A stretch of DNA of 64,000 nucleotides, taken from NCBI RefSeq assembly GCF_003859805.1, contig NZ_RQZG01000007.1, positions 88,312-152,311 of the forward strand, given 5' to 3'. Below, piece after piece: positions 1-19,153 of the stretch. Within the stretch, counting starts at the first letter, position 1. Every line of letters starts with the position of its first letter. Origin of the DNA: Arachnia propionica. Lineage in GTDB: Bacteria; Actinomycetota; Actinomycetes; Propionibacteriales; Propionibacteriaceae. The position numbers and the translations under genes were made by a program. The notes under the pieces were generated by a model. That model saw only the letters and a list, made by a program, of their open reading frames with translations, made no database searches and was not told the DNA's origin.

Positions 1-69
1 ACGAGTTCACGGCTTCGGGCGTGCAGCCCATCTTCGACTATCACCGCGCAAACGCAGAAAGGATCAACC

Positions 70-1023
70 ATGAGCGTGCTGAAGAACTTGCAGGAGCAGC
101 AGTCGAGTTCGCCGACGTCGAATCCCTCGATGTCGAGGCTCGACGCCATCGAGCAGCAGTTGACCAAGCTGACCACGGCAGTGAGCGAGCTGGCGCAGTA
201 CGTGAAGGTGATGGACGAAGCCCAGACGGGCAAGCTGACCGCGTTGACCTCGCAGCAGCGCGAGCAGCCCTCGAGGCCGCAGCTCGACGACGAGACGAGG
301 AGCAGGATCGCCGAGATCGAAAAGACGCTCGCCGCCGTCGCATCGCAGCTGAGCAGCAGCGAAGCCGTGAAACTGCCCGACGGGTCGTCGGTGCGCAGGT
401 CAGACTTGGATGCGCACTCGATGATGGCGAGGATCGAGAAGCAGCTCGCGACGACGGCCCAGAGTTCGGCTGAGCTCGCGGAGGCTGTGAAGAAGCGGGG
501 TCGGGTGACTATCGACGTCGACAAGGTCAACGCGCACTTCGCCGGTCAGCTCGACGGGCGGCTCCAGAAGGCGCTGGAGCCCTCAGTCGCACGCCTTGAG
601 CAAGCTCTCGACGGATTCGAGGCCCGGGTGGCTAACGTTGGCAGGCAGCGCGCTGTACAGGCCGTCCAGGAGGTCGAGGCAGTCGTTGCCAAGGCCGACG
701 ATGTGGTGGACGCTGTGAAGGCCGCTGAACGGCGTGTGGCCGCATTGGAGAGCAAGGTGACGTGGACTGCCGTCGGGCGCATGGGGCTGGCGCTACTGCC
801 GTTGACCGCCGTGCTCCTCGTGATCGGCGGGCTCGTCGGGGGTGTGGCCTACGCCGCCGGGGTCGGTCCGCTTCTGGGCTGGGCCTGGGGTTCATTCTCG
901 GGAACATCGGTGTGGTGGCAAAAGGCGCTCATCGCCATCGGGACGTTGGGCGGGCTGGCAGGGTTCGGTGCGCTCGTGTGGTGGTTGGCCCAGCGGCTCG
1001 GTGAGGACTTCCGGCACTGGTGA
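70..1023 (+). CDS. Hypothetical coiled-coil protein with two C-terminal transmembrane helices (island cargo)
   Basis: 317-aa ORF with ordinary composition, long Ala/Glu/Gln-rich helical region and a hydrophobic C-terminus (LALLPLTAVLLVIGGLVGGVAYAAG...). The overlapping 21..473 ORF is Arg/Ala-rich and was treated as a frame artefact. Confidence 0.45.
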   Translation: MSVLKNLQEQQSSSPTSNPSMSRLDAIEQQLTKLTTAVSELAQYVKVMDEAQTGKLTALTSQQREQPSRPQLDDETRSRIAEIEKTLAAVASQLSSSEAVKLPDGSSVRRSDLDAHSMMARIEKQLATTAQSSAELAEAVKKRGRVTIDVDKVNAHFAGQLDGRLQKALEPSVARLEQALDGFEARVANVGRQRAVQAVQEVEAVVAKADDVVDAVKAAERRVAALESKVTWTAVGRMGLALLPLTAVLLVIGGLVGGVAYAAGVGPLLGWAWGSFSGTSVWWQKALIAIGTLGGLAGFGALVWWLAQRLGEDFRHW

Positions 1024-1067
1024 TGAAAACAGAACCCCGCAGCCATCGGCTGCGGGGTTCTTGGATG

Positions 1068-1634
1068 TCAGAGGTCACGGAACACGAAAACACCGTACGC
1101 AGGCGCTGGGGCGTTGACGACGCTGAACTCCTGCTGCAGGTCGCGGGTCCATGCGTTCCAGTCGAAGTAGCGTTGGGCTTCCTCGGGCCAGCCGGTAGTC
1201 AGACCGATGTCGTCGGCGAGCTGTTCGGCATACTCGCGGAAGCTGTCCCACAGCCCGCAGTAGCACTCCTCGAAGTCGCTGAGGCACGGGATCTCGCCAG
1301 TACCCTCGGCAACGTACGCGCCTGAGCGCACCCAGGCGCACAGCGCTGGCCAGCGCTCGACCCCCACCTCGGTATAGACGCGCCCCCACTCAGCAGCCTC
1401 CAACAGATCCATCTCATGGTCGACGGGGAGGCAGTCCAGGTCGAGGCACCAGATCTCCTCACACCCCACGTACGGGCCGTCTGCGCCCTCGTGGATGGTC
1501 TCCAGGGTGATCTCGGCGACATCGGTGCATTCGACCCAGCAGCCGACGAGGCGGCCGGCGTTGTAGCAGTTCAAACAGGCGGCCCAGACGCGGGGCGCGA
1601 TGTGAGTGGTGACGGTCATGGTGTTCTCCTCCAA
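1068..1634 (-). CDS. ardA: Antirestriction protein ArdA (DNA-mimic inhibitor of type I RM)
   Basis: Acidic 188-aa protein. The N-terminus PRVWAACLNCYNAGRLVGCWVE matches the ArdA signature (Tn916 ArdA: VYIANLGKYNEGELVGAWF). The C-terminus YFDWNAWTRDL...YGVFVF matches the ArdA YIDYQAYGRDL...GIFEI block. Unusually Cys-rich (11 Cys). Confidence 0.85.
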   Translation of the reverse strand: MEENTMTVTTHIAPRVWAACLNCYNAGRLVGCWVECTDVAEITLETIHEGADGPYVGCEEIWCLDLDCLPVDHEMDLLEAAEWGRVYTEVGVERWPALCAWVRSGAYVAEGTGEIPCLSDFEECYCGLWDSFREYAEQLADDIGLTTGWPEEAQRYFDWNAWTRDLQQEFSVVNAPAPAYGVFVFRDL

Positions 1635-1736
1635 GCAGTTCGGATGAGAACGGGGCCCGACCGGCCGTGCTCGGAGAATCAGCGCTTACACCGGACTCCC
1701 GCTCTCAGGAGGGCTCCCGGCGCCGCGTTGCGGTGC

Positions 1737-1958
1737 CTACTCGTGCAGCGCCAATCGCAGCCCCAGCGAGTCAGCGACCTTAAGCAATGTGGATGAGGAG
1801 ACGGACTTGCCCGCTTCAAGGCGGGTCACCGTGAGGCGTGAAACTCCTGCGTGGGTGGCCAGTTCGGTCTGACTCCACCCGCGTGCCTTTCGAGCCTCGC
1901 GCACCTTCCGTGACAAGGGTGCTGCCCGGCCCCCGGTGTCAACCGTTGAAACAGACAT
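1737..1958 (-). CDS. XRE-family helix-turn-helix transcriptional regulator
   Basis: 73 aa with GWSQTELATHAGVSRLTVTRLEAG, a canonical HTH_XRE. It lies 1 nt downstream of the S-subunit gene and is co-directional with the RM genes. Confidence 0.8.
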   Translation of the reverse strand: MSVSTVDTGGRAAPLSRKVREARKARGWSQTELATHAGVSRLTVTRLEAGKSVSSSTLLKVADSLGLRLALHE

Positions 1959-1959
1959 G

Positions 1960-3432
1960 TCACTCCTCGTCGCCGACGACCCTGATCGAACCGTGGCGCC
2001 CTGTGAGCTGTGAAAGGGCTTGTTCCGCAGCGCTGACTGCCTCAGTTTCGAGGCGGTCGGCTTTGGCGGCCAAGTGGGTCGCCTCGTCGCTCAGATCCGC
2101 GATGGCGTCCTCCTGGGTTCGATCGAACCGCGGAATCGGGACTTGTCGAATGTCCTGGGGGTCCAGATGAGGCACTGAGGTGCCTGACGCGTAGCGGACC
2201 ACACGTGGGCGTCCGTAGTCGACGTGGTTCAGCACGGTCTGGAGGTACCCGGTGCGGACCTTGGTCTGGTCAGGGACGATGCGGATGAGGTCATGGCTGC
2301 CGAAGACGTTGTCGTGATCCCCGGTGAGGACGGTGGTTCGTCCCAAGAGCCCATAGGTCTGCCCAGAGCAGGCCATGATGATCCATCCGGCCTTGAGCAT
2401 GTAGCGCTCGGGATCGGGCAGCAGGGCAGAGTAGATGCGCTTGGTGACGGGCGGGTTCACGTCGAATAGTTCGCTGGCGGAGCGGTACGGGGTGCCGTTT
2501 GGGCCGAAGTATCGCTTGAAGCGGGAGCCCACGGACACCGACTCGACCAGGTCCTCCAGCGCCTCAACCGAGTTCGACGCGAGCTCGACGCGGTGTTCGA
2601 GCCAGACGACGTCAGCGCGATGGAACTGCCCCTCGATGCGGCGACGGCCGGACCAGATGTCTGAGGCTCGGATGGTCACCGTCGGGCTGTCGGGTGCGGG
2701 CGTGCCGCCTGGGTTGACCAGCTCGGCCAACATAGCGTCTGCTTTGGCCTGCAGTCGACGAGACGCCTGGCGCATCTCCAGCGCGTTCTTCGCATCCTGC
2801 CCGATGGCGTTTCGAGCGATGGCATCCGGCATGGCCACCGGCATCGCCAGCACGTGCTCCGGTTCCAGGTGCTTGATCATGTGGCCGTACTGGGAGCTGC
2901 GCGCGATGGCGAAGAACGTCGGCGTCTTCATGTAGGCGTACAGCCAGCCGTAGTCCTGTGGATTGTGGGGCACGATGCGCAGCAGGTCGTGGGTGATGAC
3001 CTTGTTGAGGTGTTCGTCGTAGACAGCGGTCAGGCGACCCACCTCGCCGGAACACGAGAGCAGCAGCCAGTCACGCTCAAGGTAGCGGGTCTCCACAGCG
3101 GGCACCATCGCTTCTGCGAGCCATTTGCGCACTCGATGCTGACTCTCCAGGACCTGGCCGGCCGACAGGAACGGCAGACCCTTGCCCGGGTCGACGGGGT
3201 ATCCCTTGAGCCGGGAGGGTTGCCACACCGCGGCGAGGTCGGACATGGGGACAGTCGACGGCACCGCCTCCAGCCCTTGACGCAGGCCGAAGCCATCGGT
3301 GAGGAAGGTGGATGCTTCCAGCCGTCGATCGCCTCCGGTGAGCATCTTCACGCTCACCGGTGCCCACAGCACGTCGGAGTTTATCGCCGGCCCGGCCGGC
3401 GCGAGGGCCTTGTTCAGAGCGTGCTCAGCCAT
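1960..3432 (-). CDS. Restriction-modification specificity (S) subunit with two target-recognition domains
   Basis: 490 aa with a clear internal duplication (WLLLSCSGEVGRLTAVYDEHLNKVITHDLLRIVP versus WIIMACSGQTYGLLGRTTVLTGDHDNVFGSHDLIRIVP), typical of HsdS/BcgIB-type subunits. Its start overlaps the stop of the upstream nuclease-MTase gene (3414..3432), suggesting an operon. Confidence 0.7.
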   Translation of the reverse strand: MAEHALNKALAPAGPAINSDVLWAPVSVKMLTGGDRRLEASTFLTDGFGLRQGLEAVPSTVPMSDLAAVWQPSRLKGYPVDPGKGLPFLSAGQVLESQHRVRKWLAEAMVPAVETRYLERDWLLLSCSGEVGRLTAVYDEHLNKVITHDLLRIVPHNPQDYGWLYAYMKTPTFFAIARSSQYGHMIKHLEPEHVLAMPVAMPDAIARNAIGQDAKNALEMRQASRRLQAKADAMLAELVNPGGTPAPDSPTVTIRASDIWSGRRRIEGQFHRADVVWLEHRVELASNSVEALEDLVESVSVGSRFKRYFGPNGTPYRSASELFDVNPPVTKRIYSALLPDPERYMLKAGWIIMACSGQTYGLLGRTTVLTGDHDNVFGSHDLIRIVPDQTKVRTGYLQTVLNHVDYGRPRVVRYASGTSVPHLDPQDIRQVPIPRFDRTQEDAIADLSDEATHLAAKADRLETEAVSAAEQALSQLTGRHGSIRVVGDEE

Positions 3433-5378
3433 GCCTTGAACTCCTTGGCGATGTCCTGGGTGTTGTCGTCGACCACGCGCTCCTTGGCGAGGTGCTGCTG
3501 CTCGTCGTCGTCGCCGTCCGCAGCTGTGGTGACCGCGTCGGCGGTCTCACGCACGATCTCGAAGCCCTGGTCGTCCCGCATGTAGACGGCGTTGCCGCGC
3601 TTGTCATGGCCGATCCGGTCACAGATGGCCATGAAGATCTCGTAGTCCTTGATCCTGCCTGCTGCGATCTCATCTCGGATCTGGCGCTCTGACTTGCGCT
3701 GCAGGACCAAGACGGAGGTCTGCACGCTGGTGCCGGGCTGGAAGGTGTCAGGGTGGAGGTCTACCGAGGCAAGGATGGTCGTGTGCGTGAGGATCCACTG
3801 GCGCACGAAGCCGAGGCCGGGGCTGCCCAGGATGCCGTCCGGCAGCACGAGCGCCGCGCGGCCGGTCCCAGACTTGAGAAGCTGCACACATCGCTCGATG
3901 AAGAGGATCTCCGGCGGCCGAGAGGTTGTCTTGGTCGTCTTCATCCAGGTGTCGGTGTCCTCGTCGTAGTCCCACTGGTGGCCGAGGTCGAACTGTTCCA
4001 GGATGGCCGGGTCATCGATGGGAATTTTCGAGCCGAACGGCGGGTTGGTGAGGATCACGTCGACCGCCCCCATCAGGTTGCGGGCACGCAGGTCATCGTT
4101 CCAGCGTGACGATGCGTCCAGTGAGTTGGCCTGGTACAGGCCACCGGAGCCGTCGTTGTTCATGACCATGTTCATCTTCGTGGCGCGCACGAGGTTGGGG
4201 TTGAAGTCCAGCCCCACGAGGTTGTGCTCCAGGAAGTATCGTTTGCGGTCACGGATCGACTCGTCCTGCAGCTGCCGGCTGCGTCCGGAAGCCCGCACCT
4301 CGGTCTTGATCGAGGAAACGACGTGGTTCATAGCGGCGATCAGGAAGCCACCGGTGCCACAGGCGGGGTCGAGGATGAGGTCCTTGTCGCTGGGGTCCAG
4401 CATCTCGACCATCATGTTGCAGACGTTGCGGGGGGTGAAGAACTCGCCTCGGTCCCCGCGCAGGTTGGAGCCCACCACCTCTTCGTAGGCCTTGCCCTTG
4501 ACGTCGACGTCGGAGTCCAGCAGGGAGAACATCTGGAGCTGGGTCACGATGTAGGCCAACACCTTGTCTTCGAGCTCGATGGTCTCGTTGGCCTTGAAGA
4601 TCTGCGAGTACTGACGCTTGACACTGTCGAACAGCTTGCCGATGCGGCTCGCGCATCGCATCAGCCCAGTAATATTCTGGCGCTCCTTGGGGGTGGCGTA
4701 GAACTGGGGGTCACTGGACTCACGCTCGTCCTGGATCTTGCAGAAGATGAGCTTGAGCAGCTCCCAGAAGGCCTCGGGCTTCTGCATGCCCTGGTTGCCC
4801 GCGATGTAACTGTGTGCACGCCGGAAGGCGAACAGCAGCGAGTCGGACGCCGCGGGTCGCAGCTGGTCAAAGCGCGGGGTGCCAGCCTCAGCGGTGTCCC
4901 CGCAGTGCGGGATGTCGGGGATCTCTACCGACACTCGGCTGCCGTTGCCGTCGGTATCGAACGCGAAGGAGGCCATGTCCTCGCCGTTGGTCCACATGCC
5001 AACCTCGACGTTGGGGCACGCAGCCATGTAGCTGAGCATCTGCTCGACCCCGTCCTTCTTCATCGAGGGGCGGATCTTGGCGCTCTTGCACTCGATGATG
5101 AGCCAGGCAGCCGCTTGAGTCTGCTCGGCGGGGCGCAGCCCGGGCGGGAACACGGCGATGTCGACACGGACGCGCTTGCTGCCGAACTTGATCGGGAACT
5201 CCACGCGGATGTCCTGCTTGGCGTAGCCGTACTCGCGCACCAAGGACTTCAGGATCTCTTGGCGGACATACTCCTCGGGAGTGTCCTGCCGAAGGGTGAT
5301 GCCGTCAATGAAGTCGAGCACCTTCCCCGGTGGCACGATGGCCAAGCCACCATGCGGAGCGTCAACCTGGATCGTCAT
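3414..5378 (-). CDS. Fused restriction endonuclease / N6-adenine DNA methyltransferase (BcgI-like type IIB RM subunit, or type I-like HsdM with an HsdR_N nuclease domain)
   Basis: The N-terminal ~130 aa has a PD-(D/E)xK pattern (VDIAVF...LIIECKS) resembling the HsdR N-terminal nuclease fold. Then come gamma-class MTase motifs: FFTPRNVCNMMVEMLDP, DPACGTGGFL (motif I) and ILTNPPFG (motif IV). No separate helicase-type HsdR is in the locus. Confidence 0.8.
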   Translation of the reverse strand: MTIQVDAPHGGLAIVPPGKVLDFIDGITLRQDTPEEYVRQEILKSLVREYGYAKQDIRVEFPIKFGSKRVRVDIAVFPPGLRPAEQTQAAAWLIIECKSAKIRPSMKKDGVEQMLSYMAACPNVEVGMWTNGEDMASFAFDTDGNGSRVSVEIPDIPHCGDTAEAGTPRFDQLRPAASDSLLFAFRRAHSYIAGNQGMQKPEAFWELLKLIFCKIQDERESSDPQFYATPKERQNITGLMRCASRIGKLFDSVKRQYSQIFKANETIELEDKVLAYIVTQLQMFSLLDSDVDVKGKAYEEVVGSNLRGDRGEFFTPRNVCNMMVEMLDPSDKDLILDPACGTGGFLIAAMNHVVSSIKTEVRASGRSRQLQDESIRDRKRYFLEHNLVGLDFNPNLVRATKMNMVMNNDGSGGLYQANSLDASSRWNDDLRARNLMGAVDVILTNPPFGSKIPIDDPAILEQFDLGHQWDYDEDTDTWMKTTKTTSRPPEILFIERCVQLLKSGTGRAALVLPDGILGSPGLGFVRQWILTHTTILASVDLHPDTFQPGTSVQTSVLVLQRKSERQIRDEIAAGRIKDYEIFMAICDRIGHDKRGNAVYMRDDQGFEIVRETADAVTTAADGDDDEQQHLAKERVVDDNTQDIAKEFKAWLSTL

Positions 5379-5494
5379 GGAGCGATTCTCTCTTCCTCAT
5401 CCTGCAGCGGCACCCGACCGGGCAGCAAACCTCAATGTATCAAAACTGTTACATCCTGAGAAGGCGTCAAGGGCGAGCAAACAGCGAAGGCGCT

Positions 5495-7051
5495 TCACAT
5501 CTCGCCAGTCGCAACCGCGCCACCAAAGTCGACGTCGACCGATGCTGGATCGAAGCCCTTGCGCCCGCGGGGCTGCGGGTAGAGTGTCACCGTGGCGAGC
5601 GTGTCGATGACCTGCCGCTGAACCTCGAGAGGTGCCTCGCGGAACGCCGCCGCCGGGTCCTCAGTTCCCAAGATCGGGGCCAGCACCCCGCCCCGACCTC
5701 GCAGCAGGCGCTCAGCCTCAAGCTCCGCGATCCGAGCCTCCGCCGCTTCGCGAATGCGCTTGAGGTCGCGGCCCTCGATCACTTCAGCGTCGTAGTCCCG
5801 CTGCGCCCGAAGGATACGACCGCGTTGCTCAGCGATGGAGGCGCTGATTCCTGAAGTGTCTGGGGCCTTGTCGCTCGTCTTGTGCTTGGCGAGGGCGTCC
5901 GGCTGACCGAGCCGACCAGCGATGACCTCGGTAACGAACTCGTCGATGTGGCTGCCTGTTCGCATCACATGCCCCGCGCAGCGGTATCCGCGTGGCGCTC
6001 CCGTCACCTTGCCGCCACACACAGCGCATCGGTACAGGCCGGAGCCCAGGTGCTTGCGCTTGGTCGAGCCCGAGGTGTTCGTGACCCGCTCGGTGTTGTC
6101 GAGGATGTCCTGGGCACGCCACCAGGTCTCGTCGTCGACGATGGCTTCCCACTGCCCCCGGATGGGCTCGCCTGCGTCGTCACGAAGGATCTGCGCACGC
6201 CAGGAGCGCCGACGACCACCGTCGGCTTGTGCGGTCTTCGGCGTATAGGTGGACATCCGCGCGTACCGGGGGTTCCGCAGGATGCCCAGCACGGTCGAGG
6301 GGCTCCACGGGCCGTCAGGTTCGATGGGGCGGGGCTCCTTGCCCGCGGCGAGCCTTCGCTCAGCCCGCTCGGAGGACACCACGTGGGAGTGCTTGGGCCG
6401 GGGCGAGATCCCTTTGATCTCCTGCGTGCCGCTGAGGGCACGCGCAAGCGAGCGCAGGGACTCCGGGTGTGCGGGCCGCGTGAACAGGGTGTAGATCGCC
6501 TGGACCGCTTGTGCTTCGTCGGGAAGGACATCGCCGTTGGTCGCGTAGCCAAGCGGCCTCATACCCTTGGGAGCGCGGCCTTGCTTAGCGCGTTGCAGCT
6601 GCGCCGCCGACTGGCGCGCGCCCTTGCGCTCCATCTCGGCCCGGGCGACGGCGGCCTTGATGCGGGCGTACATGCGCCCGCCATCCGTGGACAGGTCGGC
6701 GTCGCCGTTAGCGGTGACGAGAGCAAGCCCGTTGAGCTCGGCCGCGTCGATCCAGTCCTCAAGCTGGCGGGGCTGACGAGTTAGCCGGTCGAGGTCATAG
6801 CAGATGATCGCGGTAAACCGACCCGCCTTATAGTCGGCCACCATGCGGTCGTAGTCGGGCCGCGACTTCGTCCTGTCAGTGGCGCTCTTCGACTGGTCGA
6901 CGTAGGTCTCGACGACCTCCCACTGACGATACTTAGCCAGGGCCTCACACTGCTCGCGTTGCCGGTCGATGGCCAAGCCATCCATCTCCCTGTCTTGAGA
7001 GATGCGCAGATAGATGGCCGCCTTGCGGGACGTGGCGAGGGGATGACTCAT
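5495..7051 (-). CDS. Large serine recombinase (serine integrase)
   Basis: The N-terminus AAIYLRISQD is the resolvase catalytic-Ser region. It has a central recombinase domain and a zinc-ribbon YRCAVCGGKVTGAPRGYRCAGH. It has a coiled-coil C-terminus; 518 aa. Confidence 0.9.
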   Translation of the reverse strand: MSHPLATSRKAAIYLRISQDREMDGLAIDRQREQCEALAKYRQWEVVETYVDQSKSATDRTKSRPDYDRMVADYKAGRFTAIICYDLDRLTRQPRQLEDWIDAAELNGLALVTANGDADLSTDGGRMYARIKAAVARAEMERKGARQSAAQLQRAKQGRAPKGMRPLGYATNGDVLPDEAQAVQAIYTLFTRPAHPESLRSLARALSGTQEIKGISPRPKHSHVVSSERAERRLAAGKEPRPIEPDGPWSPSTVLGILRNPRYARMSTYTPKTAQADGGRRRSWRAQILRDDAGEPIRGQWEAIVDDETWWRAQDILDNTERVTNTSGSTKRKHLGSGLYRCAVCGGKVTGAPRGYRCAGHVMRTGSHIDEFVTEVIAGRLGQPDALAKHKTSDKAPDTSGISASIAEQRGRILRAQRDYDAEVIEGRDLKRIREAAEARIAELEAERLLRGRGGVLAPILGTEDPAAAFREAPLEVQRQVIDTLATVTLYPQPRGRKGFDPASVDVDFGGAVATGEM

Positions 7052-7060
7052 GCCACCAGT

Positions 7061-8146
7061 TTACTTCTTAGAAGTTAGTCCTGTCCTGAACTCGACCACG
7101 TCGCCGTCGGCCATGACGTAGTCCTTGCCCTCGAGGCGCAGCTTGCCCGCAGCCTTGGCCGCGGCCTCGGAACCCGCCTCGACGAGGTCGTCGAAGCTCA
7201 CGACCTGGGCCTTGATGAAGCCCTTCTGGAAGTCGGTGTGGATGACGCCCGCCGCCTCGGGTGCCGTCGCCCCCTGCGGGATCGTCCAGGCCCTGGCCTC
7301 CTTCGGCCCCGCTGTGAGGTAGGACTGCAGGCCGAGGGTCGCGTAGCCGACGCGCGCCAGGACGTCGAGGCCCGGCTCCTCCACCCCCATCTCCTCGAGG
7401 AAGGCGCGCCCCTCCTCCTCGTCCATCTCCACCAGCTCCGACTCGAACTTCGCGTCCAGGAAGATGGCCTCCGCCGGGGCCACCACCTCGCGCATCCGTG
7501 CCTTGAGCTCCTCGTCCGCCAACTCGTCCTGGTCGCAGTTGAAGACGTAGATGAACGGCTTGGCGGTCAGGAGGAACAGATCCCTCAGGTGTTCCAGCTC
7601 CAGGCCCGAGCCATGCACCCGCTTCCCGGACTCCAGCACCTGCACCGCCGCCTGCATCGCCTCCAGCTTCGGGCGCGACTCCTTCTTGATCCGCGCCTCC
7701 TTCTCCACGCGCGGCAGCGCCTTCTCCAGGGTCTGCAGATCAGCCAGGATCAGCTCGGTGGTGATGGTGTCGATGTCCCCCGCCGGGTCCACCTTCCCGT
7801 CGACGTGGGTGACGTCCTCATCCTCGAACACCCGGGTCACCTGGCAGATCGCGTCGGCCTCACGGATGTTGGCCAGGAACGCGTTGCCCATGCCCTCACC
7901 CTTCGAGGCCCCCCGCACGATGCCCGCGATGTCCACGAAACTCACCGTCGCAGGCAGGATCCGCGCCGACCCGTAGATCTCGGCCAGCACCGGCAGCCGC
8001 GCATCGGGCACCCCGACGACGCCGACGTTCGGCTCGATCGTCGCGAACGGGTAGTTCGCCGCCAGCACGTTGTTGCGGGTCAGCGCGTTGAACAGGGTCG
8101 ACTTGCCGGCGTTGGGGAGACCGACGATTCCAATGGTGAGAGCCAC
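7061..8146 (-). CDS. ychF: Ribosome-binding ATPase YchF (Obg-family GTPase)
   Basis: [22 protein letters not shown] is the G1 motif, with a TGS-like C-terminus. The likely true start is the GTG at 8146 (VALTIG) rather than the ORF-track start at 8203. C-terminus is noted in findings. Confidence 0.9.
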
Positions 8147-8395: not shown

Positions 8396-9658
8396 TCACC
8401 CCGCCAGGTAGACCCGCAGCGCGCGGCTGAGATGATGCGGGTCGTCAGCCCCACACAGCTCCCGGGCCGAGTGCATCGACAACAACCCGATGCCGACGTC
8501 GACGGTGGTGAGCCCGAGCCGGGTCGCGGTGATGGGACCGATGGTCGACCCGCACGGCATCGCGTTGTTGGAGACGAACCTCTGGTGCGGGATCCCCGCC
8601 CGTTCACAGGCCTGCACCCACAGCGCCTCCCCGACGGCGTCCGTCGCGTACCGCTGATTGGCATTGACCTTGAGCATCGGTCCGGCATTCGGGCCGAGCT
8701 CGATGCGCGGATCGTGGTGCTGCGGGTAGTTCGGGTGCACCAGGTGCCCGGCATCCGCCGAGATGCAGGAACCCCGCGCGATCAGCGCCTTGAACCCGTC
8801 GACCCCCAATCCCGCGACGGCGGCGATGCGCTCCAGCACATCCGCCAGGAACGGCCCGGCTGCCCCCGTCGAGGTCTCGGACCCGACCTCCTCGTGGTCG
8901 AAGGTGGCGAAGAGGACCAGATCATCGCCATCCCCGAGGTCCTCGACGGCGGCCAGGCCCGCGTGCGTGCTGGAGAGGTTGTCCAACCGCCCGCTGGCGA
9001 ACAACTCCCCACCCAACCCGATCCGGGCCGGGGCCTGGGAGTCGAAGGTGAACAGGTCATGCCCGACGACCTCCTCGGGCGCGACCCCGGCCTGCTCGGC
9101 CAGCGCCTCCAGCACCCCCACCCCGGTCTCCAGTCCGACGACGGGCTGGGTGTGGGCCTGGCGGTCGAGCTTCAACCCGTCGTTCACGCCACGGTCGAGG
9201 TGGATGGCCAGCTGCGGCACCCGTGCCACACCGGCCAGCCGAACCAGGTGCGTGGCACCGTCGCGGCTGAGCAGACGTCCGGCGATGCCGAGGTCGCGAT
9301 CCAGCCACGAGTTGATCAGCATCCCGCCGTAGATCTCGACGGCCAGCTGCCGCCACCCACACGCGGTGAACTCCACGTCCGGCTTGACCTTGAACGCCGG
9401 GGAGTCGGTGTGGGCGCCGACGACGCGCAGTCCGGTGGTGTCGTCGAACCGCTCCGGCTGCCGCCACGCGATCACCGCTCCCCCACGCACGACGAAGAAC
9501 CGGCCCGCCCCGGCCGGGAAGGCCCCCTTCTCGTCGACCTGCGTGAAACCCGCCGTCGTCAGCCGGGAAGCGACGGTGTGGGCGGCGTGGAAGCTGGTGG
9601 GCGAGTCGAGAACGAACTGGGCGAGATCGTCGAGATGCGATGCGGAATCGGTGAACAT
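8396..9658 (-). CDS. apeB: M18-family aminopeptidase (aspartyl aminopeptidase-like)
   Basis: MFTDSASHLDDLAQFVLDSPTSFHAAHTV...GAHTDSPAFKVKP...FDHEEVGS matches the M18 aminopeptidase pattern. The start was chosen at the internal Met (9658) because the 5' extension is Arg/Trp-rich junk. Confidence 0.85.
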   Translation of the reverse strand: MFTDSASHLDDLAQFVLDSPTSFHAAHTVASRLTTAGFTQVDEKGAFPAGAGRFFVVRGGAVIAWRQPERFDDTTGLRVVGAHTDSPAFKVKPDVEFTACGWRQLAVEIYGGMLINSWLDRDLGIAGRLLSRDGATHLVRLAGVARVPQLAIHLDRGVNDGLKLDRQAHTQPVVGLETGVGVLEALAEQAGVAPEEVVGHDLFTFDSQAPARIGLGGELFASGRLDNLSSTHAGLAAVEDLGDGDDLVLFATFDHEEVGSETSTGAAGPFLADVLERIAAVAGLGVDGFKALIARGSCISADAGHLVHPNYPQHHDPRIELGPNAGPMLKVNANQRYATDAVGEALWVQACERAGIPHQRFVSNNAMPCGSTIGPITATRLGLTTVDVGIGLLSMHSARELCGADDPHHLSRALRVYLAG

Positions 9659-9680: not shown

Positions 9681-10901
9681 TCACTGCCACCACCGTCGCA
9701 ACCCATCGAGACGGCACAACATCTCGACGGCCTCCGGGGCACGCCTGTCTCCCGGAACCAGCGCCCCCGGGAGCACCCGGGTGCGCCCCGAATCCTCCAC
9801 GACAACCACCTGCCGACTCCGAAGCATCGTGTGCATGGAGCTCTCGCCCACCCTCGTGAGCTGTCCCCGGCACCACACCGCGAAGCCACGCACCCGGTGC
9901 CAGGGAATGGTCCGACGCCAGAACACCCGCGAGATGTGGACCCCGTCGTCGCCGATGCGGGTCTCCCCGAAGAGGAGGCTGATCAGGAACACCACCACAC
10001 CCAGGCTGCCCCCGGCGACGATCAGGAACCAGATCATGAGGGCGGTGGGAAACCCGGGGAACCCCTTGCCCACGGCGAGGAGGATCCCTGCCATGTGGCC
10101 AAGCACCCCGGCCACCAGGAAGATGACCATCGTGCAGAGCGCCTTGAACCACACAGGTGTCCGGAACACCTGCTCGCTCCCTGCGGACAACGGGATGCGG
10201 TCGGCGTCATGACGACGCACGACCTCACTGACGTCAAGGGGCTGTCCCGACGCGATGCCGAGCACTGCACCGTCGGGCAGCACCGCCACGTGACGTCCTG
10301 GCCTGAGCGGCGCGAACCGGTACCCGAGATGATCGACGGCGCTGCCGTCCGCCGGCCAGCCGCGCCCCCGGTGCACCACGGACTCGTCGATGGCCATGAA
10401 GGCCGTTCCCTGCCCGGTCGAGATCCGCTGGCCGATCACCTGGGCGGCCGCGTACGCCTCCTCCTGTCCCGCCTCGGGCGGCAGGATCAGGGCCAGGGTC
10501 TCGACCTTCTTCGTGAGGTAGTCCAAGGAGTCGATGATGATCCCCAGATCGGCCTGCCACCACAGGGCCCCACCCGCCATGAACTCGGCATGGCTGCGAC
10601 GAACCCGCCTCCGCTGCATGACGGCGGGGACGACGATCCCGAGCAGGCAGCCGACGGCGGTCAAGGAGCTCACCACCGCGATGATCAGCATCGGCGGCGT
10701 CGCGAAGGAGAACCGGCCACCCGCCGCGGAGAGGATCAGGATCACCGGCACCCACATCGCGCCGGCGGCCAGGGAGGACAGCACGAAACCGATCCACAGG
10801 ATCACCAGCCGACCACACGGACGACGCCGGTCCCACGCATTCCTCATGAAGAAACCACGATCCTGCACCTGGGTGTTCAGTTCTCCCGGATTCAACCCCA
10901 T
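9681..10901 (-). CDS. Polytopic membrane protein with a bacterial PH (YdbT/bPH_2-like) C-terminal domain; paralogue of 11544..12806
   Basis: Two TM clusters plus a cytoplasmic region and a C-terminal ...RVFWRRTIPWHRVRGF... motif. It starts MGLNPGELN..., paralleling the paralogue's MGVKNGAMD.... It shares blocks with the paralogue (ALWWQADLGIIIDSLD vs ELCWQADLGIVIDAVD; GQRISTGQGTAFMAI vs GQRIAAARGTSFMAV; HLGYRFAPLRPGRHVAVLPDGAVLGI vs DLGHRFAPMGPGRYVAVLPDGAALGI). Confidence 0.6.
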   Translation of the reverse strand: MGLNPGELNTQVQDRGFFMRNAWDRRRPCGRLVILWIGFVLSSLAAGAMWVPVILILSAAGGRFSFATPPMLIIAVVSSLTAVGCLLGIVVPAVMQRRRVRRSHAEFMAGGALWWQADLGIIIDSLDYLTKKVETLALILPPEAGQEEAYAAAQVIGQRISTGQGTAFMAIDESVVHRGRGWPADGSAVDHLGYRFAPLRPGRHVAVLPDGAVLGIASGQPLDVSEVVRRHDADRIPLSAGSEQVFRTPVWFKALCTMVIFLVAGVLGHMAGILLAVGKGFPGFPTALMIWFLIVAGGSLGVVVFLISLLFGETRIGDDGVHISRVFWRRTIPWHRVRGFAVWCRGQLTRVGESSMHTMLRSRQVVVVEDSGRTRVLPGALVPGDRRAPEAVEMLCRLDGLRRWWQ

Positions 10902-10956
10902 GGCCTCATTCTTCACATGGGTGGGGTCATTCCACGAGACATCTGGGATGCAGCCG

Positions 10957-11448
10957 TCACCTGCGCCCCGTCGCTCTGATGGCGGCAGCAAGGAGCTTCC
11001 GCACCGAATGGGTGTTCACCCAGCGTGGCACCTCACGTCGATACTGCTCGAAGTCGTCCGCGAAGGCCTCGGCCAGTGCCGCTTCCTCCTCCGGGATCTG
11101 GAGACGATCGATGACCAGGCCGAACGCTGCAGCCGGGAGAAGTGCGACGGCCGACCTGCGGAGCAGGGCGTGAGCGACCAGTGCACTCGTCATCCCGACG
11201 TACATCGGATTGCGGGTCACCTGGTTCGGCCCACTGGTCACCAAGGACCTCACAGCGCCGACATCGACCGGATCAACGGTGGTGCGCTGTGCCCGAAACC
11301 TGAGGACGCTGCCGCCGATCAGCCACGCTGCCGCGGCCCACCATGGTGTGCTCGCCGCAGCTGAGCCCCAGGTGCCCTTCTGCCCTCTGCAGATCCCGTG
11401 CTGCACTGTGGCCGCAGCCAGCAGCAGCACCACCGGGGGAATCCTCAC
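10957..11448 (-). CDS. Isoprenylcysteine carboxyl methyltransferase (ICMT/PEMT)-family membrane methyltransferase
   Basis: 163-aa hydrophobic protein with ...TSGPNQVTRNPMYVGM..., resembling the ICMT/phospholipid-methyltransferase H/RNPxY motif. It is sandwiched between the two paralogous membrane proteins on the same strand. Confidence 0.6.
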   Translation of the reverse strand: MRIPPVVLLLAAATVQHGICRGQKGTWGSAAASTPWWAAAAWLIGGSVLRFRAQRTTVDPVDVGAVRSLVTSGPNQVTRNPMYVGMTSALVAHALLRRSAVALLPAAAFGLVIDRLQIPEEEAALAEAFADDFEQYRREVPRWVNTHSVRKLLAAAIRATGRR

Positions 11449-11543: not shown

Positions 11544-12806
11544 TCACTGCCGCGCACGTCGGAACTCATCGAGCTGGCACAGTCGCTCAACGACCCATTG
11601 AGGCCGCGCCTGTCGTCGGCGACTCCGGTACTCCAGTCCCGACAACCTCCTGGCCCGACCGCTCCGATCGACCACGACGATCTGGTACAGGTAGCCAACG
11701 TTCCCGTGGTGCTCCGAGCCCCAGTTGGACTCATTCGACCGATCACTCGTCCCGCTGCGCATCACGCCGAAACCCCGTACCTGGTTCCACGGCAGCGACC
11801 ATCGATGCAGCGGGCTCATCATGTGGATCCCCTCGGTGGCGACGAGGGTCTTGGCGAACAAGCTGTTCAGCACATACACCAGCAAGGGGATCAGGGCCGC
11901 GGGTATGGTCCAGGAAATGACCCGGAAGAACACGCCGGAGGATGTGCTGAACGAGCGCCACAGGCTGTGGCTGCCAAAGGCCATGAAAGCGATGCAGACC
12001 AGGACCGCCAGCTTGGCCAGGACGGACTGACGGAAGACCATCTCGCCACCGGAGCACCTGAACTGTGGCTTCCTGCCCTGCTCCTGCACGATCCCGCTGA
12101 CGTCCAGCGGCTGTCCCACCCCCGGGTCGATGCCGAGAGCCGCACCGTCGGGCAGCACCGCAACGTAGCGTCCCGGGCCCATCGGGGCGAACCGGTGCCC
12201 GAGGTCGTCAACCCCGACCCCATGCCTCGGCCAGTCCCGTCCGGTCTGCACCAGGGTGCTCTCGACGGCCATGAAGGATGTCCCTCGGGCCGCAGCGATC
12301 CGTTGCCCGATCACCGCTGCCGCCTGCTGTGCCTGATCCTCTGACGCGTCGAGCGGCAGGATCAGTCCCAGCATGGCTACCTGCTTCGACTCGTTGTCCA
12401 CCGCATCGATGACGATCCCGAGATCGGCCTGCCAGCACAGTTCACCCCCTTCCTGGAAGGCAACGTAATCGCCACGCCTCCAGAACAGACGCCCGATGGC
12501 CGGTACCACGAGCACGAGCAGGCAGATGACGGAGACGATGCCAAGGAGCAACATCCCGAACAGCAGCGACACCCCCGTGTCGAAGTACGCATTCCCCTTC
12601 GGTCCCGAGTTGTTCGGAAGGTCCCGCAGCATCAGGTGCAGCGCGACCGCTCCCGAAAGGGACAGCAGGAACAGGACCGCCGACACCACGACGGTGGTTC
12701 GGGAGCGTCTCCGTCTGCCCACGTGCCGCTTGAAGAAGCCGGGATCACGCAGTTGGGTGAGCAGGTGGTCCGCGTTCGGGTCCATGGCCCCATTCTTCAC
12801 ACCCAT
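11544..12806 (-). CDS. Polytopic membrane protein with bacterial PH-like C-terminal domain; paralogue of 9681..10901
   Basis: See the paralogue. The C-terminus has ...WSLPWNQVRGFGV...; same architecture, ~35-40% identity by eye. Confidence 0.6.
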   Translation of the reverse strand: MGVKNGAMDPNADHLLTQLRDPGFFKRHVGRRRRSRTTVVVSAVLFLLSLSGAVALHLMLRDLPNNSGPKGNAYFDTGVSLLFGMLLLGIVSVICLLVLVVPAIGRLFWRRGDYVAFQEGGELCWQADLGIVIDAVDNESKQVAMLGLILPLDASEDQAQQAAAVIGQRIAAARGTSFMAVESTLVQTGRDWPRHGVGVDDLGHRFAPMGPGRYVAVLPDGAALGIDPGVGQPLDVSGIVQEQGRKPQFRCSGGEMVFRQSVLAKLAVLVCIAFMAFGSHSLWRSFSTSSGVFFRVISWTIPAALIPLLVYVLNSLFAKTLVATEGIHMMSPLHRWSLPWNQVRGFGVMRSGTSDRSNESNWGSEHHGNVGYLYQIVVVDRSGRARRLSGLEYRSRRRQARPQWVVERLCQLDEFRRARQ

Positions 12807-15327: not shown

Positions 15328-15734
15328 CAGGATCACGAGCCGCGGCGCGCCCCGCCCTGCGCCACGAGGTCGAGCACCCGCACGTCGCCCTTGGGAAGGA
15401 CCGATCATGGCGTACACGAACCGCCGCTCTGCTTCCCTGAGCCCGCCGATGACAACGCTGCCATGGAAGCAGGACGGCGGTTCGCGACCCTGGCAGTTTC
15501 GCCTGTCTCGTCCTGGCGTCAGCCACCCTGACCCACGAGGCCCGTTCCAGCAACAGCGGAGCAACCTACCCAGATCCGCTGTTACCGCCTGCCAGAACAC
15601 GCCTCCGCTTCTTCTCCGTTGGCCGAACCAGAGCGTGAGCACCAGCGAGCCATCCGAGACCAGACCTCTGCCCACGCTGCAGGACCTCGACTTGAGGGGG
15701 AATCCCACGGTGTCTCGGCACGGGCCTCCGCAAG

Positions 15735-16697
15735 CTACGTCAGGTCGTGCTTCTTGATGGCGCGGCGCAGTTCGGGTGGCAGCGCGAAGGTGAGGTTCTC
15801 CTCCGTCAGGCGCTCCTCCTCCGCCTTCGGGAAGCCCCGTTCCTCCAGGTGGTCGAGCACCCCCTGGACCAGTTCATCGGGCACCGAGGCACCGGAGGTG
15901 ACACCGACGGTCTCCACCCCGTCGAGCCACTCGGGCCGGATCTCTGAGGCGTAGTCGATGCGCTCGGAGCGCTTCGCCCCGGCCTCGAGCGCGACCTCCA
16001 CGAGCCGCACCGAGTTCGACGAGTTGCGCGAACCCACCACGATCATGAGATCCACCTTCGGCGCGATCTGCTTGACCGCCAGCTGCCGGTTCTGGGTGGC
16101 GTAGCAGATGTCGTCCGACGGCGGGTCCTGCAACAACGGGAACCGGGTCCGCAGCCGGGAGACGGTCTCCATGGTCTCGTCGACGCTCAGCGTGGTCTGC
16201 GACAGCCACACCAGGGGCTTGTCGGTGGGCATGTCGAGGTGGTCCACGTCGTCGGGATGCTCCACCAGGGTGGTCCGCTCCGGGGCCTCCCCCATCGTGC
16301 CCTCGACCTCCTCGTGTCCCGCGTGACCGATGAGCAGGATGTCGGTGTCCTGGCTGGCGAACCGCTTGGCCTCCCGGTGCACCTTGGTCACCAGCGGGCA
16401 GGTGGCATCGATGGTGCGCAGCTCCCGCCGGGCGGCCTCCTCGTGCACCGCCGGAGAGACCCCGTGGGCGGAGAAGACCACCAGGGCATCGGTGGGCACC
16501 TCGTCGAGCTCGTCGACGAAGATCGCCCCGCGCTGCTCCAGCGTCGAGACCACGTGCTTGTTGTGCACGATCTGCTTGCGCACGTACACGGGCGGGCCGT
16601 AGGTCTCCAGCGCCTTCTCGACGGTGACGACGGCGCGGTCGACCCCCGCGCAGTAGCCCCGGGGGGCCGCGACGATGACCCGCTTGGTGTTGCTCAT
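15735..16697 (-). CDS. ispH: 4-hydroxy-3-methylbut-2-enyl diphosphate reductase
   Basis: [19 protein letters not shown] is the N-terminal Cys ligand region, followed by further conserved IspH/LytB blocks. Start set at MSNTKR (16697). Confidence 0.9.
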
Positions 16698-18338: not shown

Positions 18339-19092
18339 CTGCCGGGACCAGGATGGCCGCCAGAATGAGTGTCGTGACGATCTCCCACCTCCCCAGGGCC
18401 TTGGCCGTCACCGGTCGGCCACGCATCGCCCCGAGCCAGGGCACGAGCCAGGCCCTGAGCGTCGTCGCCGCGAAGAAGGCGACCAGCCACCAGCGTCCCA
18501 GTCCGACGTCCCAGACGGCGAACAGCACCGTGAACGCCAGGTGCCAGGCCACGGAGTAGACGATGAAGTCGACGCGCCCCCGCTCCCGGATGTTGGTCTT
18601 GACGTAGAACACGGTGCCGAAGAAGTAGCCGAAGCACACCAGCGCCACCCCGTACAGCGTCGGACTCACCACCAGCGGCAGCAGACAGGCCGCGGCGACG
18701 GTGACCAGATCGGACAGCAGCGAACGTTCGTCGCGTCGCCACGAGAACCACAGTCCCGCTGCCGTGAGCGGGCCGAAGACCAGCCCCCAGACCCACCACT
18801 GGGGCTGCAGCGCCAGCAGCACGATCCCCAGTGCTGCGGTGATGCCGCCGTAGGTGGCGACGGCGTTGCGGTAGCGCGGCTTGAAGCGCGACTTCAGCCA
18901 CAGCCCGGCTGCGAAGAAGGCGAAGTAGCCGAGCAGCCAGGTCGGCCCCAGCACCGCGACGGCGGGGTGGAACTCACTCGAACCACCGGCCCAGATCAGC
19001 GCCAAAACGTAGGGCAGGAGGACCATCGCCCACGCCCCGTGGTGATTCGGGACCCACCCCTGGGAGCGCCCCCGGCCCTGTGCTCGCACCAT
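18328..19092 (-). CDS. Integral membrane protein (YwiC-like family)
   Basis: ~8 predicted TM helices, Trp/Leu-rich, no soluble domain. Confidence 0.5.
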   Translation of the reverse strand: MVRAQGRGRSQGWVPNHHGAWAMVLLPYVLALIWAGGSSEFHPAVAVLGPTWLLGYFAFFAAGLWLKSRFKPRYRNAVATYGGITAALGIVLLALQPQWWVWGLVFGPLTAAGLWFSWRRDERSLLSDLVTVAAACLLPLVVSPTLYGVALVCFGYFFGTVFYVKTNIRERGRVDFIVYSVAWHLAFTVLFAVWDVGLGRWWLVAFFAATTLRAWLVPWLGAMRGRPVTAKALGRWEIVTTLILAAILVPAVIG

Positions 19093-19153
19093 GCCCCGAT
19101 ACTAGGGACCCTGCGGTGAGCGGGGGGTTGCGGGGCAGGTCGTCGCGAAAACG

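Follow-up and report, generated by a model that had tools for sequence, protein, structure and literature searches.

Pipolins of Actinomycetota that carry a large serine recombinase (LSR) have been described with ychF named as their integration site, and relaxase-bearing integrative and mobilizable element pipolins ('IME-pipolins') and defence cargo were described in the same work (Mateo-Caceres et al., NAR 2024, PMC11551731). Here we analyze a 64,000-nt stretch of the Arachnia propionica genome (RefSeq assembly GCF_003859805.1, contig NZ_RQZG01000007.1, positions 88,312 to 152,311 of the forward strand; 'the window'), in which a large serine integrase gene (5495-7051, minus strand, 518 aa, ATG at 7051) directly follows ychF (7061-8146, minus strand, 361 aa, TAA at 7063-7061). 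We favor the possibility, to which we assign a probability of roughly 0.88, that these two genes mark one border of a 12.8-kb pipolin that was inserted by its serine integrase into the 3' end of ychF and supplied this gene with a replacement C-terminus. With an integrase 9 nt from ychF and a primer-independent family-B DNA polymerase (piPolB) on the same element, the locus has the features by which ychF-targeting LSR pipolins are recognized, and it resembles the published ones in combining piPolB, an LSR, defence or restriction-modification (RM) cargo and, as is sometimes the case there, a relaxase, in the same phylum and at the same target. The element is thus a well-resolved example of an already described kind of pipolin and target and not a new system. 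It differs from the published work in that ychF was assigned there from gene context, while the main text reports neither att sites nor a crossover, nor any consequence for the YchF protein (PMC11551731). What appear to be new here are the nucleotide-level att sites, a conserved substitute tail on YchF and the stacking of integrase-less cassettes at the same site. We found no other paper tying ychF to a serine integrase in this manner; a pneumococcal prophage that lies beside ychF is a different case.

Outside the pipolins, there is precedent for serine integrases altering the end of a housekeeping gene. The attB of phage Bxb1 reportedly lies in the 3' part of groEL1 and has GT as its central dinucleotide, and integration is said to damage GroEL1, with a biofilm defect. 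The present case is similar in that an actinobacterial LSR uses the 3' end of a conserved housekeeping gene, alters the host C-terminus and has GT at the inferred centre; it is different in that the element is a pipolin and not a phage, three residues are swapped for a family-conserved 7-residue tail, and the identity to phage integrases is only ~31%. The phiRv1 element of M. tuberculosis reportedly encodes a serine integrase together with a small Xis-type helix-turn-helix (HTH) directionality factor and inserts in REP13E12. It too is a small, non-phage-like actinobacterial element pairing an LSR with an excisionase-family HTH protein as potential directionality factor, although its target is a repeated sequence and not a housekeeping gene, and the corresponding role of the HTH_17 protein in our element is putative. 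In streptococci, integrase-less cis-mobilizable elements (CIMEs) accrete beside integrative and conjugative elements by means of tyrosine recombinases and a common attL/attR core. The integrase-less cassettes described below likewise carry att-like repeats and stand in tandem with an integrase-bearing element at one site, whereas the enzyme here is a serine integrase. Finally, islands in tRNA and tmRNA genes regenerate the 3' end of their target (Islander, PMC4383910), and dusA-specific islands are known (PMC4482086). There, too, a conserved target gene is completed by element sequence, and the fragment that it loses shows where the island ends on the far side, but the islands rely on tyrosine integrases that share an identical core repeat and rebuild the target precisely. 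Here, in contrast, a serine integrase acts, attP and attB have only ~12 bp in common, and the gene does not regain its native end.

The ychF gene of the window is a hybrid, host-derived down to ~7097 and element-derived from 7094 to the stop. The element-borne end (7061-7094, minus strand) reads (GT)C GAG TTC AGG ACA GGA CTA ACT TCT AAG AAG TAA, and so re-encodes (V)EFR and places TGLTSKK* where FNV* would be native. The encoded protein is otherwise a typical YchF (TIGR00092, 440 bits with a cutoff of 279; Pfam MMR_HSR1 and YchF-GTPase_C), the YchF-GTPase_C profile aligning at positions 1-83 of 84 with its final position unmatched. The other end of the element was found on Logan contig SRR9701127_78, the single public contig with the integrase. 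One locus taken from this contig by looking up the integrase (L081) stops before the element ends, while a second one (L087), looked up from the leftmost gene of the window, reaches that end and runs to the end of the contig (window position = L087 position minus 5841). At L087 165-139, on the ychF strand, we found GTGGTGGAGTTCCGCTTCAACGTGTGA and then a hairpin, CCCGGTCCCTTCGACCGGG; this sequence constitutes the native ychF end (VVEFRFNV*), displaced along with what is probably its terminator. This fragment lies 5.7 kb upstream of window position 1 and forms part of attR (L087 ~139-190). From the displaced ychF end to the junction in the window the element measures 12,775 bp, of which 1-7094 are inside the window and the rest corresponds to L087 162-5841.

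Comparison with close relatives leads to the same result. An Arachnia propionica YchF of 357 aa is 96% identical to that of the window, and Arachnia propionica L168 (GCA_003932785.1) shares 95.5% nucleotide identity over 7 kb upstream of ychF. The L168 gene has the native FRFNV* end, and the flank that follows the displaced ychF end in our element is found in L168 as well (98.8% over 162 nt), with 3.7 kb of other DNA between ychF and this common flank. The displaced native end at the far side, together with the L168 flanks around different DNA, establishes that an insertion into ychF took place. More broadly, in 80 actinobacterial ychF loci taken from a YchF scan of species-representative genomes, the protein ended in ...EFRFNV in 68, as do the solved YchF structures (1JAL and others); there were a few minor variants and seven remodelled tails. 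RTGLTSKK was found in Schaalia and in an Arachnobacterium-like metagenome-assembled genome (MAG; L078), KSGLTSGGKK in Trueperella, RSGLASAKK in Nocardia, RSGIPSGGGKK in Galactobacter and FGSTSTSKK in two MAGs. Five of the seven remodelled loci showed further signs of insertion, namely an integrase (whole or as a remnant) after ychF, a displaced ...FNV* fragment, or both; no integrase, remnant or displaced FNV* was found at the other two (L031 and L068). In Schaalia an integrase 61% identical to ours directly follows ychF, and in L078 (11104-11250) the RTGLTSKK tail is followed by just the first 43 integrase codons and then by sugar-ABC-transporter genes; judged by this arrangement, L078 is a decayed element that retained the substitute YchF tail. 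The initial annotation of this stretch, made from the window alone, had stated that many YchF proteins end in ...HFRFNV and had proposed that an element entered the last codons of ychF, supplied a replacement C-terminus and had its other end upstream of position 1. These three inferences are supported by the displaced end 12,775 bp away and by the matching L168 flanks. The condition that it named as refuting did not apply, and two of the checks it suggested had the expected outcome: relatives lacking the integrase end in FRFNV and not in the substitute tail, and a second att half-site lies upstream of the window on the same contig. The drop in GC content that it reported on the element side is real, if modest: 64.8% for the part within the window and 65.3% overall compared with 69.5% for the rest of the window, where the lowest 12.8-kb stretch has 67.8%, so that the element lies under all flank windows of its size.

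We reconstructed the att sites by combining attL with attR in each of 11 elements. The resulting attP is a 52-bp pseudo-palindrome (25 + 2 + 25 bp) of the form ...AAACGTTCGTTCTGTCCGTAATGTG-GT-SGAGTTCAGGACAGGACTAACKTCT... (S = C/G, K = G/T), with the arms AAACGTTCGTTCTGTCC and GGACAGGACTAACGTCT; the attP junction is reconstructed as ...CCGTAATGTGGT|CGAGTTCAGGACAGG... and the restored attB is predicted to be ...GACGTGGT|GGAGTTCCGCTTCAACGTGTGA, while the displaced copies of the ychF end follow the pattern ...GT-SGAGTTC-NNN-TTCAACGT. In all 11 elements the dyad axis of attP falls on the GT of the second Val codon, with 13-17 of 24 positions matching in each and a summed score of 168, against at most 97 for any other axis. 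In the window this GT forms the first two bases of the Val351 codon (7095-7096, minus strand), and attL (~7070-7116) is made up of a host B half-site (~7097-7116) and an element P' half-site (7070-7094) that carries GGACAGGACTAACTTCT. Counted from the centre, the motif AACGT occupies nt 19-23 in each arm of attP and nt 14-18 in the B' arm of attB, where the codons for Asn and Val of ...FNV contribute it. According to the Listeria integrase model, the half-sites are 25 bp long and the zinc-ribbon motif lies 5 bp further inward in attB than in attP (Rutherford et al. 2013, PMC3783163); the dyad on GT and the 5-bp shift of AACGT thus match what is expected of large serine integrase sites. We consider it probable that GT at 7096-7095 is the crossover, and in any event the junction is inside ychF at 7089-7096. 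The initial annotation had looked for attL/attR within ~7040-7075, whereas the crossover lies ~20-50 nt deeper in ychF.

The integrase is a full-length large serine recombinase, and catalytic activity is predicted. It matches Pfam Resolvase (PF00239, E=4e-28, residues 11-159) and Recombinase (PF07508, E=4e-10) as well as the PHROG 95 integrase (E=1e-85). In 19 homologues C342, C345, C358 and H361 are invariant and the YLRIS motif (R16, S18) is nearly so; the Pfam zinc-ribbon model gave no match in the protein. In an AlphaFold2 model (AF2, pLDDT 80), residues 399-421 and 427-461 form long helices, and the closest structures are the full-length integrases of Bxb1, SPbeta-type and phiC31, with E=1e-20 to 1e-14, the best match being Bxb1 (9iu2). 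In its domain order, with a zinc ribbon and an inserted coiled coil after the Recombinase domain, the protein conforms to the LSRs. The phage- and plasmid-borne integrases of annotated collections reach ~31-34% identity at best. An origin from a prophage or plasmid was considered and dropped, there being no close integrase relative in these collections (identity at most 34%).

A search of the protein database returned 1,416 homologues of the integrase at E<=1e-20, from Corynebacterium, Actinomyces, Schaalia, Trueperella, Glutamicibacter, Brevibacterium, Propionibacterium and other hosts, and three homologues picked at random from long contigs (P0003, P0006 and P0032) all lie downstream of a ychF whose tail is remodelled. 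We also scanned metagenomes with the integrase as seed (80 loci), a sample that is unbiased with respect to the tail. Every relative of at least 59% identity for which ychF was visible upstream had a remodelled tail (28 loci). Eight of them resemble the window, with the tail RTGLTSK(K/R) and an integrase start 10 nt past the stop; 18 have a longer tail (RTGLTSGGKK, RTGIPSGSKK and similar) and, after ychF, 1-6.4 kb of cassette DNA that precedes the integrase; in the other two (L096 and L127) the tail is the short RTGLTSKR, with a gap of ~2 kb ahead of the integrase match. Integrases of 56% identity or less are mostly not beside ychF. At two loci, L156 (ychF 15426-16508) and L159 (ychF 18973-20046), integrases 44-46% identical to ours occur with ychF ends remodelled to EFRHGATSKRVLPT and EFRFGKT, respectively, the remodelled ychF lying 8-9 kb from the integrase in convergent orientation. 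From their arrangement, these may represent a second integrase lineage with the same target and the integrase at the far end.

How the integrase gene is expressed in the inserted state bears on the behavior of the element. The spacer between the ychF stop and the integrase ATG (7052-7060, minus strand) consists of 9 nt, ACTGGTGGC, in which GGTGG, 1 nt from the ATG, is the sole string resembling a Shine-Dalgarno (SD) sequence; homologous spacers in relatives are ACTGGAGGC and AATTGAAGGT, and the string is GGAGG in relatives. Simple consensus scans, which are ill-suited to DNA of 69% GC and carry little weight, found no promoter- or terminator-like site between ychF and the integrase gene. A promoter-like TTGACG-18-TAGGAT near attR is directed at the HTH_17/piPolB operon. 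The simplest reading of this arrangement, and a likely one, is that the integrase is expressed by read-through from ychF with coupled translation. The initial annotation gave the 9-nt distance correctly and held that the ribosome-binding site and promoter of the integrase must be inside the ychF 3' end; co-transcription and translational coupling with ychF are indeed likely, but GGTGG sits in the spacer and not in ychF.

The order of genes on the element, from its far end, is HTH_17, piPolB, DUF3223, a 105-aa protein, NikA-like, relaxase, a 317-aa protein, ArdA, HTH_3, an RM-like pair and the integrase. Next to attR is a 98-aa protein of the HTH_17/excisionase family (TIGR01764), and the piPolB of 1047 aa, the DUF3223 protein and the 105-aa protein are in the part covered by L087 as well. 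The 1047-aa protein had no match in Pfam, NCBIfam or PDB sequence searches, whether with the single sequence or with a profile, and was identified only by PHROGs, motif inspection and fold search. DTE (Exo I), NADL, YASND, DLQSCYPT (Pol A), KLMANSPYGK (Pol B) and SCTTDG are invariant, as are the Exo II and Exo III motifs; a PHROG DNA polymerase is matched at E=8e-8, and homologues are named 'DNA-directed DNA polymerase' by NCBI. The AF2 model of a 91%-identical homologue (pLDDT 77) has phi29 DNA polymerase as its closest fold in Foldseek (TM-score 0.60-0.62, target-normalised). SxTTDG is a published signature of primer-independent PolB, a second one being KH-X8-KTRG in place of KxY (PMC5695915). 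The protein is a family-B polymerase of the piPolB group, for which primer-independent synthesis is predicted.

Mobilization functions are represented by a MobA/VirD2-type relaxase of 405 aa (L087 5097-6314, plus strand; Pfam Relaxase PF03432, E=2e-10), which starts 744 nt upstream of the window and occupies window positions 1-473, and by a NikA-like protein (PF21983) just upstream of it. No type IV secretion system, FtsK or TraB family was matched among the open reading frames (ORFs) of the element, and the presence of a relaxase with no mating-pore genes makes it a mobilizable pipolin by the IME criterion. A 317-aa coiled-coil protein with C-terminal membrane segments follows (70-1023, plus strand; called as a gene in L081 and L087, sub-threshold Pfam matches only). 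On the minus strand are genes for an ArdA antirestriction protein (1068-1634; Pfam ArdA, E=6e-23), a 73-aa HTH_3 (XRE-type) regulator (1737-1958; Pfam HTH_3, E=1e-13), a MAD5-like specificity/endonuclease-like subunit (1960-3432; no Pfam match, NCBIfam MAD5 249 bits, below the cutoff of 400) and, overlapping the latter by 19 nt, a MAD2-like N6-adenine DNA methyltransferase (3414-5378; Pfam N6_Mtase and HSDR_N_2, NCBIfam MAD2 628 bits, below the cutoff of 720). Both proteins fall below the NCBIfam cutoffs, only two related genes are present and the other genes of the methylation-associated defence system (MADS) are absent, and so the pair is not assigned to MADS. The cargo at 1960-5378 is possibly a reduced or distinct two-gene RM/defence system, a MADS-related methyltransferase/specificity pair, beside ArdA. 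Outside the element, two adjacent paralogous genes (9681-10991 and 11544-12806, minus strand) encode membrane proteins of 420-436 aa with no Pfam match; both are kept in L168 (1363-2604 and 3247-4467).

The integration can be reconstructed as follows. In the free circle, a 52-bp attP would lie between the integrase gene and the divergent excisionase-like/piPolB operon, and the integrase would pair it with an attB formed by the last ~10 codons of ychF, the GT in the second Val codon of ...DGDVVEF being the most likely point of strand exchange. One product, attL, is ychF::P', with a new tail for VEFR-FNV and the integrase ATG 9 nt past the new stop; the other, attR, is P::(V)VEFRFNV*, with the native ychF terminator hairpin moved 12.8 kb away. 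Once integrated, the integrase would be transcribed via read-through from ychF, and this would be harmless since a serine integrase alone does not excise; excision by such an enzyme requires a directionality factor. The 98-aa excisionase-family HTH protein beside attR is a candidate for this factor, and the excised circle may be copied by piPolB and moved, via its own relaxase and NikA-like protein, by a co-resident conjugative element.

The ychF site also holds DNA lacking an integrase. In L168 (7000-10940) the native FRFNV* is directly followed by TCTGGTGGTAAGAAGTAG, the end of a 'long' substitute tail, and then by SLATT_4 and SMODS/AGS_C genes (CBASS-like). Copies of the ychF end recur at 9124 (degenerate) and at 9222-9243 (22 nt), after which comes a second cassette (DUF4143); a third copy, at 10769, is joined to the native flank. 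On this layout, the L168 site is composed of two tandem integrase-less cassettes. In Corynebacterium heidelbergense (CP063191; L086 3936-11572) the cassette that separates the integrase from ychF consists of a type III RM Mod+Res pair, and the same ychF-cassette-integrase order is seen in L088, L090, L093, L095, L097, L098, L107-L110, L114, L116, L120, L122, L124, L132, L133 and L135. The 18 cassette loci among the 28 metagenomic ones have another P'-like arm, degenerate in sequence, immediately ahead of the integrase; it lacks GT at the expected crossover position. At the ychF side the cassettes begin with a P'-type arm that encodes the substitute tail and often also the SD sequence and start of the first gene (GGAGG-N7-GTGA), and at the far side they end in a regenerated ychF end that begins at the GT crossover; the cargo includes type III RM, SLATT+SMODS, a RelA/SpoT-like gene and GNAT. 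We put forward only tentatively, and consider doubtful at present, the idea that the ychF 3' end is an actinobacterial accretion platform at which defence cassettes are captured, stacked and possibly moved in trans by pipolin serine integrases. A separate observation concerns a Galactobacter MAG (L073 11104-11610), where an insert of 0.5 kb between 17-bp direct repeats, GACGTGGTGGAGTTCCG, contains a single ORF of 168 aa (GNAT-like by eye), the last ten codons of which are the displaced ychF end (GDVVEFRFNV*).

Other explanations of the junction have to be weighed against the one we favor. If TGLTSKK were a lineage-specific native end of YchF, with an integrase merely downstream, no insertion would need to be invoked; nothing but the bare adjacency of the two genes speaks for this, while the native end and its terminator are displaced to the far side of the element, the sister strain L168 ends in FRFNV, and the identical tail is seen in unrelated genera solely where the integrase family or its remnants occur. 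We regard this explanation as already refuted and give it practically no credence. A subtler alternative is that the same integration took place with strand exchange at the TT of the Phe codon (7090-7089), so that only the residues from F353 on come from the element. The crossover was also mapped by comparing near-identical elements between hosts; the four attL pairs and the single, imperfect attR pair obtained gave answers that conflict at one base. In L084 and L085 the elements are identical over 1,660 nt, but the two sequences are unlike at the G of GAG, which lies 4 nt rightward of GT; this last ychF difference (G/C) is immediately to the left of TT, and TT is the second-best dyad axis (sum 97). 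The L107/L108 attR pair, on the other hand, differs at the same G and places the crossover to the left of it, although this pair is just 97.5% identical. Moreover, all 11 elements have GT as their best axis, only a centre at GT accommodates the 5-bp motif shift, and GT is precisely where the resemblance to ychF sets in for three independent inserts that lack an integrase (L058 and copies 2 and 3 of L168). Exchange at TT is accordingly improbable in our judgment. Besides the L084/L085 difference, several details count against one part or another of our interpretation: the left (B) arm of attB has no clear zinc-ribbon motif at the attB spacing, and no dyad could be established in attB; GGTGG at 1 nt from the integrase ATG is too near for a canonical SD sequence; the second piPolB signature reads KH-X8-TTRA, although KH (K769, H770) and TR (T780, R781) are invariant; the ORFs of the relaxase and the 317-aa protein (window 1-1023, L087 5097-6864) overlap by ~400 nt in different frames, which suggests that one of these gene models is probably too long; and, as regards current mobility, no empty attB of the same strain or species was found, the nearest relative L168 holding other cassettes, nor was an excised attP junction found in IMG/VR contigs or the 168 fetched loci.

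The last of these results would be compatible with a fixed remnant, in which the junctions record an old integration and the element is unable to excise today, and so would the overlapping gene models in the relaxase region and the existence of remnants elsewhere, such as L078 with its 43 aa of integrase beside the same tail. We nevertheless find this unlikely: full-length ORFs are present for the integrase, piPolB, the HTH_17 protein, the NikA-like protein and the relaxase, the two pairs of att half-sites are preserved, each with its GT, and hosts whose ychF has diverged carry elements that are 100% identical (L084/L085 and L096/L127), which shows recent transfer within the element family. 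A different issue is whether the tail is conserved as peptide or as DNA. In 28 distinct sequences of the six core tail codons, Arg is encoded by each of its six codons, Gly by three and Thr and Leu by several; five of the six codons vary at the third position, and the changes are mostly synonymous (pN/pS 0.24, not phylogeny-corrected), a pattern that argues for selection on the peptide, as a protein-binding site has no cause for codon periodicity. We infer that the substitute tail keeps YchF functional. The conservation of R-T-G-L-T-S...K-K could instead reflect constraint on DNA, through the P' arm and the translation signals downstream, and not selection for a YchF C-terminus, in which case YchF may be impaired or altered in carriers. 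The tail bases are also within the predicted integrase-binding P' arm, where they overlap the conserved motif GGACNNACGTCT; TCT is almost invariant; and the rare codons CTA, AGG, GGA and ACA are retained despite a host of 69% GC. In the longer tails, TCT GGA GGT AAG AAG TGA provides GGAGG and, after a spacer of 7 nt, a GTG that overlaps the stop codon of ychF (GTGA) (L086 5003-5040; L058 11050-11100; L073 11060-11110), and the first cassette gene, which starts at that GTG, appears to be translationally coupled to ychF. The restoration of the native FRFNV* in L168 ahead of a leftover tail end points in the same direction. Taken together, these features indicate that constraint at the DNA level contributes too; that it is the whole explanation seems possible to us but is the weaker case, and we continue to favor a tail under selection as part of YchF.

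What the analysis provides is a fully delimited actinobacterial pipolin with att sites at base level, where the literature names the target gene only. As integrase, attP and attB are available as a base-level set, the system is directly testable and could be used as a further orthogonal serine-integrase system for high-GC bacteria. The stacked defence cassettes fit the published view of pipolins as platforms for the exchange of defence genes, and their stacking hints at a mechanism that is not understood for serine integrases; if the accretion idea is true, the ychF platform would be an integron-like gene-capture site, run by an LSR and expressed from a housekeeping gene. For the hosts, the finding means that a widespread element family rewrites, in a conserved way, the C-terminus of YchF, a universally conserved ribosome-associated ATPase, and this raises the question of whether the tail is neutral or a modifier of host stress or translation control.

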